DNA from: a virus
Lineage: Duplodnaviria > Heunggongvirae > Uroviricota > Caudoviricetes
Virus record (IMG/VR): IMGVR_UViG_2563366825_000014
Location: 1-5,577 of that record
Length of the DNA stretch: 5,577 nt
Reading direction: 5' to 3' (one strand)
Below, piece after piece: positions 1 to 5,577 of this stretch; position 1 is the first letter of the stretch; each line of letters begins with the position of its first letter. Made by a program: the position numbers and the translations under genes. The notes below the pieces were generated by a model. That model worked only from the letters and a program-made list of their open reading frames with translations. It made no database searches and was not told where the DNA came from.

Positions 1-745
1 GACCTGCGGGGCCGGTTTCTCCCCGAGGGCCTGCGGGACCTGCCGGACCTGTTGCGCCGGGTTCACCTTTATCCCCTTTCGGGCCGGTTTGCCCTGCCGG
101 ACCCTGTGGTCCGGGTGGTCCGGGTGGTCCGGCCTCTCCACGTGGGCCGGTGTCACCTTTCGGCCCCGGCGGTCCGCCCGGGTCACCTTTATCGCCCTTC
201 GGTCCCTGTGGACCTGTTTCTCCCCGTTCTCCCTTTGGCCCCGGCTCACCTTTTGGTCCGACCGCCCCCGTTGCCCCGGCTGGTCCCTGTGCCCCTGTGG
301 CACCCTGTGGACCTGTGTCCCCCTTCTCGCCCGCCGGTCCCCGGGCATTCTCTGCCCGTTTCTTCGCTTCCTCTGCACTCGCCGCCGACGCTTCAGCACG
401 CTTCAGGATTTCCGCTGCCACCGCTTCCAGCTCTGCAAGCGCTTTCGGGTAATACTGCGCCTCATCCTGTTCCATCAGAAATTTATTCAGCGTTCCCGGC
501 TCAGAATCCGCCTTCACCAGAATGTCACCCACATACGACGGGGCGCACCCTTCCGTGTTCAGCGTCACCCGGTACCACCCCGGCTCCACATCAAAACTGT
601 AACTGCCGGTTTCCCCCGGCTGCCCCTGCGCCACCGTGGTGACTATCACTGTCTCTGTGGTGCGTCGCGCTTTCAGCTCTATGGTGCATCCCGGCACCGG
701 CTTCCCGGTGCCGTCCTTCAGCACGCCCGATATTCTGACTGTCAT
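1..745 (-). CDS. stf: Side tail fibre protein, lambda Stf-like: N-terminal domain (~135 aa) followed by collagen-like Gly-X-Y repeat region; partial, 3' end beyond window start
   Basis: ATG at 745..743 preceded by GGGAGA Shine-Dalgarno (plus 751-756 is its complement). Hand translation of the minus strand gives [38 protein letters not shown]..., which matches from memory the lambda Stf N-terminus ([17 protein letters not shown]...). From codon ~136 (plus 340 downward) the frame reads [113 protein letters not shown] and stays open to position 2. It is absent from the ORF track only because no stop lies inside the window. Confidence 0.85.
106..132. repeat. Perfect 3x tandem 9-bp repeat (GTGGTCCGG) inside the stf collagen-like region; encodes consecutive Gly-Pro-Pro / Gly-Pro-Gln triplets on the minus strand
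   Basis: Positions 106-114, 115-123 and 124-132 are each gtggtccgg. The unit length is a multiple of 3, so slippage would add or remove whole G-X-Y triplets in frame. Confidence 0.8.
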
Positions 746-758
746 AGATTTCTCCCAT

Positions 759-792
759 AAAAAAAAGCCCGCAGCAGTGACGCCACGGGCTT
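759..792 (-). terminator. Rho-independent terminator-like hairpin plus U8 tract, immediately upstream of the stf ribosome-binding site
   Basis: Minus-strand RNA reads AGCCCG-(14-nt loop)-CGGGCU followed by UUUUUUUU (plus 759-766 is an A8 run; stem arms are plus 766-771 and 786-791). The loop is longer than in a textbook terminator. Confidence 0.45.
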
Positions 793-825
793 CAGGACAG
801 TGTAACTTTACGTTTCCTCAAACGC

Positions 826-849
826 AGTTCATCACATGAGGCGGATGAA
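826..849 (-). other. Perfect 7-bp stem / 10-nt loop hairpin (GTTCATC...GATGAAC) in the lom-stf intergenic region
   Basis: Plus 826-832 gttcatc and 843-849 gatgaac are exact reverse complements. Not followed by a U tract, so not a terminator by itself. Confidence 0.4.
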
Positions 850-856
850 CCTGCGA

Positions 857-865
857 ATTATAACA
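857..865 (-). promoter_or_regulatory. Candidate sigma70 extended -10 element (TGnTATAAT) reading toward stf
   Basis: Plus 857-865 attataaca is the reverse complement of TGTTATAAT, a perfect extended -10. No convincing -35 hexamer, which is permissible for extended -10 promoters. Lies 32 bp downstream of the lom stop. Confidence 0.3.
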
Positions 866-896
866 ATGTTTGCAGAAGATAAATCGTCATATACTC

Positions 897-957
897 TCAG
901 AATCGGTATCCGGTGCCGACAATAAACGCATCCGTACGCCAGTCACCACGTCCTGAG
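897..957 (-). pseudogene. lom: Orphaned 3' end of lom (last 17 codons plus stop), separated from the rest of the gene by the IS insertion
   Basis: Minus-strand translation of 950..897 gives RGDWRTDAFIVGTGYRF-stop, which matches the lambda Lom C-terminus as I recall it (SGDWRTDGFIVGVGYKF). It is in frame with the 5' lom segment once the IS and one copy of the 7-bp repeat are removed. Positions 951-957 are the left copy of the target duplication. Confidence 0.85.
951..957. repeat. Target-site duplication, left copy (TCCTGAG)
   Basis: Identical 7-mer directly abuts both IS termini (951-957 and 3539-3545). The lom reading frame is continuous across the reconstructed empty site. Confidence 0.8.
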
Positions 958-1072
958 TGCGTATTACCGTGAAGGAGATCGGTGAGTAACATCGATGGAG
1001 ATCGGTTCGTGTCACTTTCACAGAACCGTTTTTAAATTACCTTCACTGATCTCCTTCGGTCAACGGAGATTG
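958..1072. repeat. Right end of the IS (downstream of istB): terminal inverted repeat plus sub-terminal repeats
   Basis: GGAGATC at 974-980 and 997-1003, its complement GATCTCC at 1048-1054, and a partial copy GGAGAT at 1065-1070. The 17-bp core TAACATCGATGGAGATC sits at 986-1002. Confidence 0.7.
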
Positions 1073-1792
1073 TATTTTCCGCATTGATTCTCCTTTAAGT
1101 TCGATCTTGATACTGCCATGAACCAGTCGATCTAGGATGGCATCCGCATGTGTGGAGTCTCCGATCATTTTGTACCAGTTTTCCACCGGCAACTGGCTCA
1201 CTACGATGATTGAGCCTCGTTGGTACATCAGATCCACTATTTCCAGCAGGTCGCTACGCTGTTCTGATGAGAGAGGTTCCAGCCCCCAGTCATCCAGAAG
1301 CAGCAGATCGCTATTATTCAGCCTGGTCAAAAGTTTGCTGTATCTTCCATCAGCATGCCCCTGATAGCACTGTTCCATCAGCGCTTTAAGGCGATAATAG
1401 TAGACCTTGTATCCCTGTCGGCAGGCATTATGACCAAGTGCACATGCCAGGAACGTTTTACCGCTGCCGGTGGCCCCGGTCAGTAAAATATTTTGTTTCA
1501 GGGTTAACCAGTTTCCCTGACTGAGTGAACGGATGAGGGCCCTGTCCAGCCCTCTATTGTTACGATAATCCAGCTTTGATAACTCAGCATTAAGTCTGAA
1601 CCGTGCATGTTTGATCAGACGCTCTGCCTTCCTGTTTTCACGGCAGGTTAGTTCTTCTGCTGTCAGTAATGACAGGCGTTCTTCGAAGCCCAGCTCCTGG
1701 TATGTGCCCGGCTGAGCAAGTTGCTTTTTAAGCGCATCACGGAAGCCGGTGAGTTTAAGTGCGGTCAGTTGTTCGTAAAGATGATTCATCAT
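1043..1792 (-). CDS. istB: IS21-family helper ATPase IstB (249 aa)
   Basis: Walker A motif GATGSGKT (in LLTGATGSGKTFLACALG) and Walker B-like LLLLDDWG are visible in the translation. Start lies 11 nt downstream of the istA stop, the usual IS21 arrangement. Confidence 0.93.
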   Translation of the reverse strand: MMNHLYEQLTALKLTGFRDALKKQLAQPGTYQELGFEERLSLLTAEELTCRENRKAERLIKHARFRLNAELSKLDYRNNRGLDRALIRSLSQGNWLTLKQNILLTGATGSGKTFLACALGHNACRQGYKVYYYRLKALMEQCYQGHADGRYSKLLTRLNNSDLLLLDDWGLEPLSSEQRSDLLEIVDLMYQRGSIIVVSQLPVENWYKMIGDSTHADAILDRLVHGSIKIELKGESMRKIQSPLTEGDQ

Positions 1793-1803
1793 TGGATCCC
1801 GTA

Positions 1804-3345
1804 TCAGTGGTAATACTCACTGCCGCGTACGTTTTCGTGTTCCATCGTGGATAACAGATCTGGTTTTGGATCCTGAACAGGTTGTTTATCCAGACCTTTT
1901 TCCAGGATCGATTTAATACCTGACAGACGCCATACCTTTGTTTTCAGAGCTCTTGCACATGCTGCATTAAGTCTGGCTTTACTGTATTTTTTATGAAGGT
2001 TCAGGAGTCCAAGGCAGAAGCGATAGCTTTGTTCCGGATGTGGACGAGAGTTCAGTATATGAAGCACATAACTATGAGTTTCACTGCCTATGTGCCCCGC
2101 CCATTCCAGAAGACGCTCTGGCGTCCAGGTGGCATGCTGTCGATGAGCTTCAGGCATGTGCTCGTTGCGGGTACTGTAGCCATAAGTACGCTTGCGCGGG
2201 TGCACAGCAACCTCCTGCCCCTGATTGAAGAGTCTTACCAGTTCTCCGGAGATCCATGCTTCCAGTTGCTGGCCTAACAGCGAACATGGAACCGAGTAGT
2301 AATGTTTGTCGATTTCCACGTGGTAATCGGCATGAACTCTGACTTTCTTCACCAGGGTGTAACTGTAACTGGCTTCAGGAAGAGGCTTCAGTGCGGGTTT
2401 ATCAAGCTGGATGAAGAGTTCTGCACGTGAATAACCCAACTTCTGCATTATTTTGTTATTCAGTCTTTCCAGCAACTCCCGAATGCGCTGATTAAGCGAT
2501 GCAAGGCTGTAGAAGATCTCATGCCTGATTCGGGCCATGATCCAGCGTTCAACAACCTGAACGCCAACTTCAGCTTTGGCTTTATCTTTCGGTTTACGTG
2601 GCCGCGCAGGCAAAACTGCGACATTATAATGCTCAAGCATCTGCTGGTAGGTAGGGTTAACGTCAGGATCATACTTACATGCCCTGGATGTGGCGCTTTT
2701 CAGATTGTCCGGAACAACAAGTTCAGGAACGCCACCCAACCACTGGAAGCAGCGAACATGACTCATCACCCAGTCTTCAAGCTGCTGAGACCAGGTGGCC
2801 TCTGCCCATGTGTAACTTGATGCCCCGAGAACAGCTACGATGACCTGAGCAGTTCTTATTTCTCCGGTCTCAGGGTCGGTAACGCCAACGGTAGGTCCAC
2901 AGTAATCAACGAAAAGTTTTTCGCCAGCTTTATGTACCTGACGCATTGATGGTGAAGTGGTTTTGAGCCATTCACGGTACATCCGGCAGTAATGGTTATA
3001 GCTGTAAAAACCGCCTGGATTACGCTCACAGTATTCTTCCCAGAGTAGCTGCAGCGTCACGCATTTATTACGCAGTTCCCGGTGTACTGTAGCCCAGTCA
3101 GGCAGAGAGTGCTTCTTCATCTTAACCTGGGTCTGAAGGAACGCATGTTTTAGTTTTGTATCATCCCATCCTGTAGGTAAGGGCCACTGCTTTATGCCAA
3201 GTTGAGCCGCCCGATTAGCATATCTGGATACAACGGAAGGGGAGATTGCAAGACTACGACCAATTTGTCGATGGCTGAGTCCAACACCGTATTTAAGCCT
3301 AAGAATTTCTTTAAGTTTTCTCATAGAAATTGGAACTGTTGGCAT
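1804..3345 (-). CDS. istA: IS21-family transposase IstA (513 aa), DDE-type
   Basis: N-terminal helix-turn-helix-like segment (LSHRQIGRSLAISPSVVSRY). Candidate catalytic acidic residues in FVDYCG, VVPDNLKSA and KAEVG contexts. AGGA-like Shine-Dalgarno 6-8 nt upstream of the ATG at 3345. Size and position directly upstream of istB. Confidence 0.93.
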   Translation of the reverse strand: MPTVPISMRKLKEILRLKYGVGLSHRQIGRSLAISPSVVSRYANRAAQLGIKQWPLPTGWDDTKLKHAFLQTQVKMKKHSLPDWATVHRELRNKCVTLQLLWEEYCERNPGGFYSYNHYCRMYREWLKTTSPSMRQVHKAGEKLFVDYCGPTVGVTDPETGEIRTAQVIVAVLGASSYTWAEATWSQQLEDWVMSHVRCFQWLGGVPELVVPDNLKSATSRACKYDPDVNPTYQQMLEHYNVAVLPARPRKPKDKAKAEVGVQVVERWIMARIRHEIFYSLASLNQRIRELLERLNNKIMQKLGYSRAELFIQLDKPALKPLPEASYSYTLVKKVRVHADYHVEIDKHYYSVPCSLLGQQLEAWISGELVRLFNQGQEVAVHPRKRTYGYSTRNEHMPEAHRQHATWTPERLLEWAGHIGSETHSYVLHILNSRPHPEQSYRFCLGLLNLHKKYSKARLNAACARALKTKVWRLSGIKSILEKGLDKQPVQDPKPDLLSTMEHENVRGSEYYH

Positions 3346-3400
3346 AGGTATCCTTTACCGGAATGGCAAAAGATACAGATCAACACACCTGTGAAGTTCC

Positions 3401-3538
3401 AATAACATTGATGGAGATCACTGAATAACAAAATGAGTCAAAAGTGATCTCCATCGATGTTATTCAGCGATCTGTTCAAATGTTATTACCCGATCTCGAT
3501 GGAAGTTATTGAGTGATCTCCTTTCATGAAAATACGCA
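3401..3538. repeat. Left end of the IS (upstream of istA): terminal inverted repeat plus multiple sub-terminal repeats, including a 22-bp inverted pair
   Basis: 3401-3422 aataacattgatggagatcact and the reverse complement of 3443-3464 (aataacatcgatggagatcact) differ at one position. Further GATCTCC/GGAGATC copies at 3413-3419, 3446-3452 and 3515-3521, and a partial copy at 3491-3497. Confidence 0.75.
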
Positions 3539-4084
3539 TCCTGAGGCTTCATAAGCCAGGTCGACCACGATATTTTCTGTCGGGTTAATCTGCACGCCTG
3601 CACTGTATGTCAGTGCGGTATGGCTGCGGCGTCCGCTGTCCGAACGGGTCAGGTGCTCCTGCTTTTTACCCTCATCTGACGTGAGGGTCACATAATCACC
3701 GGCAAAAGACGACACCCGGGCATACGACACTCCGGCCAGCGCATAAGCGCTGAACCATTCATTCACGCGCACAGATGGCCCCGCCATCACGCTGAACCAG
3801 CGGTTACGCACAGAATCCTCATGCCAGCGGGTATCGTTGTAGTGCGTTTTTTGCTCACCTTCAGCATTGGCATAACTGAATGACGTAATCAGCCCCAGCG
3901 TGTCCGTAAATTCATAACGGTATTTCACGTTAATCCCGTTCAGATCATCACTACCGGTAGTGTTCGTCAGGGCATGAAGATACCCCGCACTCAGCGTGGC
4001 CTGCTGCTCAGACGCCCATGCAGGCGCACCGGATACGGCCAGACAGATGGCTGCGGACAAAATGGCTGCACAAACTTTACGCAT
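3524..4084 (-). pseudogene. lom: lom-type outer-membrane protein gene (Lom/Ail/PagC/OmpX family), 5' 182 codons intact, C-terminus replaced by 4 IS-encoded residues (CVFS) and a stop inside the IS terminus
   Basis: Translation MRKVCAAILSAAICLAVSGAPAWASEQQATLSAGYLHA... closely matches the lambda Lom signal peptide and mature sequence from memory. GAGAGG Shine-Dalgarno upstream of the ATG at 4084. Lom homology ends at 3539; codons 3536..3524 lie within the IS. Confidence 0.88.
3539..3545. repeat. Target-site duplication, right copy (TCCTGAG)
   Basis: See left copy at 951-957. Confidence 0.8.
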
Positions 4085-4106
4085 AATTACCTCTCGCTTT
4101 TCTGCA

Positions 4107-4133
4107 ATAAAAAAGGCACCATTTCTGGCGCCC
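4107..4133 (-). terminator. Rho-independent terminator between J and lom (tJ-like)
   Basis: Minus-strand RNA reads GGCGCC-AGAAAU-GGUGCC (6-bp stem with one G-U pair) followed by UUUUUUAUU. Lies 19 nt after the J stop codon. Confidence 0.5.
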
Positions 4134-4151
4134 GTATCTGGGTTATAAAAT

Positions 4152-5577
4152 TCAGCTAATCGTGATGCCTGCAGTGGCTTTCTTCATCACCACAACCAGC
4201 AAATCGCTGATACTTGCTGTGGGATACCAGTTATTTACCAGCCATGCTGACACCGAAAACTCCAGTGTCATGTGACCGTGACCGGCAGGCATATCAATAA
4301 CGCCACTGTAAATCAGCGTATTATCCAGCGCGGTACGGTTATAAATTTCAGCACCGTTTTTCCGCACTATCAGACGGCATGAGGAGTAAATATCAGTATG
4401 CTCTCTCTCATGCTTAGCGCCACTGAATGCCACCGCCGGAATAACAATCTGCCGGTCAAACGGCTGATCGTCATAAACCCTGACGGTAATGGTCCCTGAT
4501 GGCCACCGCTCCGGTGCACGGGAATCCCGGGGGAAAGCTTTGCCCACTGTTTTAACGAGATCGCCTTCAATCTGGTTCGCGGACAGTTTTCCCAGAACCC
4601 GACAGTTCTCGTTAATCGTGACGTTGTTGAGCGTCCCGGAATTCGCATTCACGTTACCGCTGATATCAGCATTTCTTGCGGTCAGCCTGCCCTCCGGCGT
4701 CAGGGAAAACGTCGGGGGATTGCCGGACGAGGTGATACTCACCGCAAACAGCCGCTTCAGGAACACATCGTTCATGAACAACTGATTCCCCTGCGCCACA
4801 AATAACGGCGTGGTGTTGCCGTCCTCCGGGTTAATCATCGCAATACGGTCAGCCAGCAGCAGTATGTTGCTCAGGGGCTGGCCATCAGTATCCTCAATCC
4901 CCGCTCCAATACCGGCAACATAGGGTATGCCATTTTTTGTTTTCTGTACCTTCAGCATGTAAAGTGCAGCAAGGTCATCATTTGTGTCCTTCTGCACGCG
5001 CTGTATCTGCTGTATGGTGGCGCTCTGGTCCTCCAGCGTTTTACTGACCGTCTGTGTGATTTCATTGCGGGTTTCTGTGATGGTGGTCTGCATTTCCGCC
5101 ATCTCGTCCTTCAGCTTGCTGTTGTCAATCTCTGCCCACAACGCCTCTGCCAGATGTGTTTTTCCTATCTTTTCCCGGAAAAACTCCAGATAGCCCGCAG
5201 CATCATTGCTCGCCCGTCCACTGGCTTCCACAAAAGCAGATTTACCCACCAAGTTGACGCTGCGCACATAAAACCAGAAATCCTTTCCGGGCTTAATGTG
5301 CGGACCGGAGACACTCCACTGACTGCCGGTCCCCAGATAACGGGCAGAGGTTTCCACCTGTGCGGCGTCTGCAATTTTTGCCTCCGAAAACCAGAACTCA
5401 AACTGCACCGTCGGGTCATAAATGGTCAGTTTCGGGACTGCCGTTATCTGAAAATACCCCGGCGTCAGTTCAACACCGGCAGGCGCTGCCGGTGCGTTAA
5501 TCCGGAACGTGGTGGTGGCGGGTTCGCCCTGCTGGCCATAGCTGTTAATCGCCCTGACCGTCAGGGTGTATTCCCCG
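4152..5577 (-). CDS. J: Central tail fibre / host-specificity protein, lambda gpJ-like, C-terminal ~475 codons; partial, 5' end beyond window end
   Basis: Frame is open from the window edge (5576) to the stop at 4152. The M at 5408 in the ORF track is an internal GTG, not the start. Translation contains ...[27 protein letters not shown]...YLGTG...[17 protein letters not shown]...VAGIG...[19 protein letters not shown]...[15 protein letters not shown]...DMPAG..., matching the lambda J C-terminal region as I recall it. Position upstream of lom matches lambda gene order. Confidence 0.88.

Follow-up and report, generated by a model that had tools for sequence, protein, structure and literature searches.

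A common alternative receptor-binding tip of lambdoid protein J, a swappable cassette that probably docks into a porin

In lambdoid phages, some 980 residues of protein J are conserved, and the last ~150 are hypervariable. The question raised by the locus described here is what kind of tip its J homologue carries and which receptor that tip may bind. An initial annotation, made from the sequence, had claimed that the last ~150 residues of J depart from those of lambda J, that the upstream part matches lambda well, and that the prophage might use a receptor other than LamB. The analysis covered a window of 5,577 nucleotides, the whole stretch of DNA analysed (positions 1 to 5,577 of IMG/VR record IMGVR_UViG_2563366825_000014).

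The window is a stretch of scaffold KE136652.1 (assembly GCA_000407805.1) between two N runs, which lie at 8083-8507 and 14085-19054 (4970 bases) of the retrieved sequence. Gene order on the minus strand is as in lambda: J, a spacer with a hairpin, lom (here with an insertion sequence), a further hairpin and the start of the side tail fibre gene. The C-terminal 474 codons of a gpJ homologue (4155..5576, minus strand) were identified from the open reading frame and its translation, BLASTP and Pfam, and are followed by the J stop codon TGA (4152..4154, minus strand). All 474 codons are open. J, like the side tail fibre gene, is cut at the window edge because an N run (assembly gap or mask) begins there, and not for a biological reason. 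Residues of the J fragment are numbered q1-q474 below.

The fragment aligned to residues 686-1131 of lambda J (NC_001416, 15505-18903) with 52% identity (BLASTP, E 1e-166). Pfam domains were found in the order Ig_J, Ig_J_second, Phage_Tail_Tip and Ig_GpJ_C, which is the order in lambda. Domain names for the J fibre were taken from PMC11101478. The second Ig-like domain, FNIII-2, occupies q31-133 (5178..5486, minus strand; PF24489, E 8.7e-39), and the beta-prism of the tail tip fibre (in lambda J the 'central straight fibre') occupies q188-315 (4632..5015, minus strand; PF09327, E 2.6e-23). A linker block, NADISG...NENC, spans q300-335 (4572..4679, minus strand) and is conserved in all 4 alleles compared. 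The Ig-like tip, or receptor-binding domain, was assigned to q325-474 (4155..4604, minus strand).

Identity to lambda J was determined segment by segment. The FNIII segment (q1-120) was 69% identical and the beta-prism (q241-324) 76%, and the tip (q325-474, window 4604-4155) was 41.6% identical (62/149) in a gap-free alignment. The tip is significantly less conserved than either the beta-prism (Fisher p = 3.2e-7) or the FNIII segment (Fisher p = 8.4e-6). The pairwise alignment with lambda gpJ therefore gave no high identity across the C-terminal domain, and the claimed divergence of the tip is borne out. In a sliding comparison at the nucleotide level, the ~80% identity to lambda gave way to 45-60% around q~316-326 (window ~4630-4600). 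The start of the divergence, at 4604, had therefore been placed correctly.

The claim that the upstream part matches lambda held for the motifs on which it was based (FEFWFSE and FYVRSVN), both conserved, but failed for the alpha-helical shaft. This segment (q121-240, window 5216-4857) was 31-32% identical to lambda J, below the value for the tip, and contains a 28-residue insertion relative to lambda at q~153-180 (5037..5120, minus strand), seen as a gap in the alignment to lambda J and in a multiple alignment. The insertion makes the coiled-coil about four heptads longer than that of lambda. The insertion is also present in phi330 (88% over the segment) and, as a variant, in VT1-Sakai (57%). 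The lambda shaft flips and partly refolds upon receptor binding; fibres with the long and the short shaft may thus be of unequal length or be triggered differently.

The divergent region proved to be a receptor-binding domain, as had been proposed. [quoted passage not shown] The last 190 residues of J were modelled as a monomer with AF2 from 16 homologues, giving a mean pLDDT of 78.9 and values of 80-97 over the tip domain. A Foldseek search with the model returned four gpJ structures as its top PDB matches (E 2e-20 to 2e-18, probability 1.00). These were 9wca (A8 gpJ, closed), 9wcb (A8 gpJ, open, with EDL933 OmpC), 8xck (lambda gpJ, closed) and 8xcj (lambda gpJ, open, with LamB). The TM-score over the whole query was ~0.65, lowered by the extended linker, which was modelled as a monomer. 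A sequence search of the PDB was concordant with the Foldseek result for the tip. The window tip is an Ig-like gpJ receptor-binding domain (Pfam Ig_GpJ_C), with the predicted fold of the solved lambda and A8 tips.

On this predicted fold, divergence showed no clear enrichment in loops over strands. Strand and non-strand positions of the tip were 40 and 38% identical to lambda and 60 and 55% identical to phi330, respectively, and positions variable within the tip allele family numbered 25/79 in strands and 21/52 in loops. As strands and loops differ about equally, no remodelled binding surface is claimed beyond two loop indels, described below.

A divergent tip could also arise by decay, as the pseudogene end of J in a defective prophage. 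The adjoining lom gene is split by ISEc12, many database relatives of the tip are frameshifted or chimeric fragments, and J is frameshifted in both VT1-Sakai and ST131 strain 4433. The J fragment itself has 474 open codons, however, and its truncation is that of the scaffold at an N run. Its tip is 99.3% identical at the protein level to tips in phage genome records and 100% identical at the nucleotide level to tips in six other genomes, and it gave a full-length Pfam match and a confidently predicted fold. As the tip combines a 99% match to phage records with a full-length profile match, its divergence is not attributed to decay, which we regard as extremely unlikely. Judged by its 98-99% identity to the tips of phages 2G7b, PhiR5_1, PhiR55_1 and vB_EcoS-783R2, the allele is functional. 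The window prophage as a whole may be defective, with lom disrupted by the IS and the 5' part of J lying past the gap.

The frequency of the tip was determined in phage records and in complete E. coli genomes. By megablast the tip was found at 80-99% nucleotide identity in 58 phage records, including VT1-Sakai, PPompW prophages, many Stx1a and Stx2a phages, 2G7b, PhiR5_1, PhiR55_1 and vB_EcoS-783R2; lambda was not among the matches of this search. Of 5426 complete E. coli genomes, 3381 (62%) carried the tip allele family, with a median of 2 copies, and 98 carried the lambda tip, those listed being laboratory strains. Six complete E. coli genomes contained the window tip without a nucleotide difference. 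A tblastn search with the tip resolved discrete allele classes at ~99%, 92%, 64%, 59-61% and 38-41% identity. For the window as a whole, the closest complete genome was NCTC9112, which matched at 99.1% in three pieces and carries the IS elsewhere. The allele bears the annotation 'host specificity protein J' in thousands of genomes. Many of the database proteins that matched the tip had arisen by frameshift or were fused to unrelated genes, and in VT1-Sakai a mutation is annotated as splitting J (1981-5453 of the retrieved region). E. coli prophages often carry J as a pseudogene, and alignments therefore need curation.

The diversity of J tips has been described before. Andrews and Fields (bioRxiv 10.1101/2020.06.25.171868) reported high conservation of J in the N-terminal ~980 residues and extreme diversification in the C-terminal ~150. 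Their example, J of lambda_2G7b, shares >97% identity with lambda up to residue 982 and only 40-60% at the tip. The window tip is the 2G7b allele. It is thus an already known and very common alternative J allele, and that of lambda is the rare one.

The relation of the tip to the rest of J was analysed with a six-way J alignment, per-segment identities and sliding nucleotide identity. Tips of 2G7b (LR595866), VT1-Sakai/Sp15 (AP000400), PPompW prophages, PhiR5_1/PhiR55_1 and many long-tailed Stx1a/Stx2a phages were 97-98.5% identical to the window at the nucleotide level and 98-99.3% at the protein level over the 150 residues. With these values, above a threshold of 95%, the window tip is of the VT1-Sakai/2G7b type, an allele that occurs on varied backbones. 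The J backbones of 2G7b (lambda-like) and VT1-Sakai (another shaft, J frameshifted) differ from that of the window. In Lambda_2G7b the FNIII, shaft and prism segments were 95-98% identical to lambda and the tip 99.3% identical to the window; VT1-Sakai combined a third shaft type with a tip that was again 99.3% identical to the window. The converse was found for phi330, whose backbone resembled that of the window (FNIII-2 85%, shaft 88%, prism 93%) but whose tip, of the A8 type, was only 59% identical.

The borders of the exchanged block were located from the same data. Against 2G7b and VT1-Sakai, identity was 62-73% before q~296-305 and at least 95% beyond it; against phi330 it was 80-100% as far as q~335 and 40-60% thereafter. 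Both tip junctions lie inside the conserved linker, at q~296-335 (window ~4690-4570). On the other side, 99% identity to 2G7b and VT1-Sakai continued through the J stop codon and the 67 bp J-lom spacer (4085..4151, minus strand), in which there is a terminator-like hairpin at 4133-4114; the first 180 nt of lom were 75-80% identical. As the junctions lie in the linker and at the start of lom, the cassette measures ~600 bp (about window 4680-4085). The window tip is one allele among interchangeable J cassettes, a recombination unit of ~600 bp that is subject to mosaic exchange.

The tip was then compared with J tips of characterised receptor use, as the initial annotation had proposed. Identities were 59-65% to A8/phi330, 41% to lambda and 40% to phage 434. 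The A8/phi330 tip (phi330 being the Stx2a siphophage PV189401) is the closest characterised relative and has the same fold and family, with an identity to the window of 59% over alignment columns, ~61% by BLASTP over the last 150 residues and 63-65% by Foldseek. Linker and C-terminal strand are nearly identical between the two. Apart from ~40% substitutions, they differ by two indels (window DSRAPERW vs TS--TY, and HE-----REHTDIY vs HENFNSNNQQSYWY), one of 4 residues and one of 5-6, located in loop regions q351-358 and q391-394. Given this distance and these loop lengths, the window tip is an allele distinct from the A8/phi330 type. The lambda J tip (~983-1132; 8xck, 8xcj) shares position, length, fold and Pfam family with the window tip, but at 41.6% identity the latter is not the lambda-type, LamB-specific allele. 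The phage 434 tip (lambda h434, OM418627) shares family and position, with 40.3% identity and several indels, and is no closer to the window tip than the lambda tip is.

Several further comparators were considered. The Eligo chimera '1A2' carries the gpJ C-terminus of a natural E. coli phage on lambda J; its sequence was not found in the two Eligo papers, the earlier preprint or the supplements available, and it could be the window allele. HK022 is FhuA-dependent. An HK022-type tip was rejected, as the alignment with HK022 J stops at q274 and the tips are without similarity. The Gifsy-1 J tip was set aside as a different class, being 18% identical to lambda, and BamA users because they are podoviruses, which have short tails and a tail fibre unrelated to J (PMC12502783). 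A 2026 receptor-prediction preprint deals with Drexlerviridae-type GpJ, and lambdoid tips fall outside its scope.

Published receptors of related tips were compiled. Lambda J binds LamB and 434 J binds OmpC (PMC11101478). The A8 chimera uses OmpC of both K-12 and EDL933 (PMC11338833), and the complex of A8 with EDL933 OmpC has been solved (9wcb). The Stx2a siphophage phi330 uses OmpC, as established with a Keio ompC knockout and complementation (PMC12502783). The 1A2 chimera recognises OmpC of EDL933 but not that of K-12 (PMC11338833). Phi21 J has LamB as its native receptor, and one substitution takes it to OmpC and a few more to OmpF (PMC11336670); evolved lambda variants also reach OmpF (PMC11101478). 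The host of PhiR5_1 and PhiR55_1 is listed as E. coli C, and a follow-up Nature paper on the PhiR phages gives ManYZ dependence and no receptor. For the window allele, no receptor assignment was found in the searchable literature. The characterised receptors of PF12421-type tips are LamB, OmpC or OmpF, all of them trimeric porins.

Trimeric porins are the only known receptors of the family, and the nearest relatives depend on OmpC. OmpC is therefore put forward as the candidate receptor of the window tip, with modest confidence. Another porin such as OmpF or LamB is conceivable though doubtful, and something other than a porin appears unlikely. Percent identity cannot assign a receptor here, as Phi21 goes from LamB to OmpC by one mutation. 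The earlier suggestion that the prophage uses a receptor other than LamB is plausible, in that the tip is not the LamB-specific lambda allele and the nearest characterised tips use OmpC; it is weakened by the 59-65% identity to those tips.

That the tip still binds LamB, as lambda does, would fit its membership of the same fold and family as the lambda tip, and the ease with which LamB, OmpC and OmpF are exchanged by very few changes, as in Phi21 with its native LamB specificity (PMC11336670). The nearest tips, those of A8 and phi330, nevertheless depend on OmpC and are independent of LamB (PMC11338833, PMC12502783), and the window tip shares 59-65% identity with them, far more than the 41% it shares with lambda. 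Moreover, the Eligo screen for gpJ proteins of other receptor specificity was performed in a lamB deletion strain, and A8 and 1A2, the two chimeras for which details are given, are both OmpC users (PMC11338833). Retention of LamB as the receptor is accordingly considered improbable.

Binding to another porin (OmpF, NmpC/Lc-type or PhoE), to a non-porin protein or to LPS, which would add a new receptor class, is rather unlikely. The two indels and ~40% substitutions that set the window tip apart from the OmpC-binding A8 tip leave room for such a change, and OmpF has come within reach of evolved lambda and Phi21 variants (PMC11101478, PMC11336670). [quoted passage not shown]

Taken as a whole, the preferred explanation, a receptor-binding tip that is exchanged as a cassette and docks into a porin, most likely OmpC, is held to be quite probable. 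Homologous recombination in the conserved flanks swaps the tip block between otherwise different J genes, the block consisting of the linker end, the tip domain, the stop codon and the J-lom spacer. In lambda, the Ig-like domain puts four distal loops into the LamB trimer; the three tip domains spread, and the signal is relayed via the beta-prism and the helical shaft until the tail tip opens (PMC11101478). By analogy, the distal loops of the three tip domains of the window fibre would enter a trimeric porin of the outer membrane, and the beta-prism and helical shaft would pass the binding signal on, so that the tail tip opens and DNA is ejected. We infer trimeric docking and the signalling mechanism of the window tip from this analogy and its receptor from related tips; the domain identity, fold, mosaic exchange and prevalence of the tip rest on the analyses above.

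A closely related prophage at ompW of NCTC9112, which matched the window best in J, lom and stf, contains a gene annotated as the porin ompC. This gene is part of the tail operon, flanked by the L-like and the M-like tail gene (23782-24945 of the retrieved region). With a J tip nearby that possibly targets OmpC, such a prophage-borne OmpC variant hints at surface modification or superinfection exclusion.

Downstream of the J-lom spacer, the 5' part of lom, encoding an Ail/Lom outer-membrane protein, occupies 3539..4084 (minus strand; PF06316, 1-182 of 199, E 3e-114) and its 3' remnant 897..957 (minus strand). The gene is interrupted by ISEc12, an IS21-family element of 2581 bp (958..3538, minus strand) assigned from identical annotated copies, with istA at 3345-1804 and istB at 1792-1043. 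Both genes are intact, the element is bounded by terminal inverted repeats, and a perfect 7-bp target duplication (TCCTGAG) is present at 951-957 and 3539-3545. Excision of ISEc12 in silico restored a Lom of 199 residues, for which reason the insertion looks recent.

ISEc12 was also found inside the J-adjacent lom of many other genomes. In ST131 strain 4433 it lies in lom next to J and splits the gene into 438 + 228 nt (3268-6453 of the retrieved region), vs 546 + 54 nt in the window. The two insertions occupy different sites in lom, which rules out that they are the same event, and ISEc12 has therefore hit lom independently at least twice.

The 5' part of the side tail fibre gene occupies 1..745 (minus strand; PF08400, E 2e-42; PF01391, collagen). 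It encodes the prophage tail fibre N-terminal domain followed by collagen-like Gly-X-Y repeats with a GC content of about 70%, which run into the second N run; this run of 4970 bases is presumably there because the repeats were left unassembled or were masked. A second terminator-like hairpin precedes the gene at 793-764 (minus strand). The hairpins are each followed by a T run; the one at 4133-4114 separates J from lom, and the one at 793-764 separates lom from the side tail fibre gene. As they flank lom, it appears to form a transcription unit of its own.

The counts correct a reference frame centred on lambda, with the window family in 3381 of 5426 genomes vs 98 for the lambda allele. The receptor of the tip family would help to predict which strains are lysogenised by Stx-converting and other prophages carrying this tip, and a characterised tip would add a module to gpJ chimeras for DNA delivery. 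There is a small chance that the commonest J tip family of E. coli uses a receptor beyond LamB, OmpC and OmpF, or reads OmpC in a strictly allele-specific manner (as 1A2 does). If this is true, the tip family would be one determinant of the E. coli lineages that are open to lambdoid and Stx phages.
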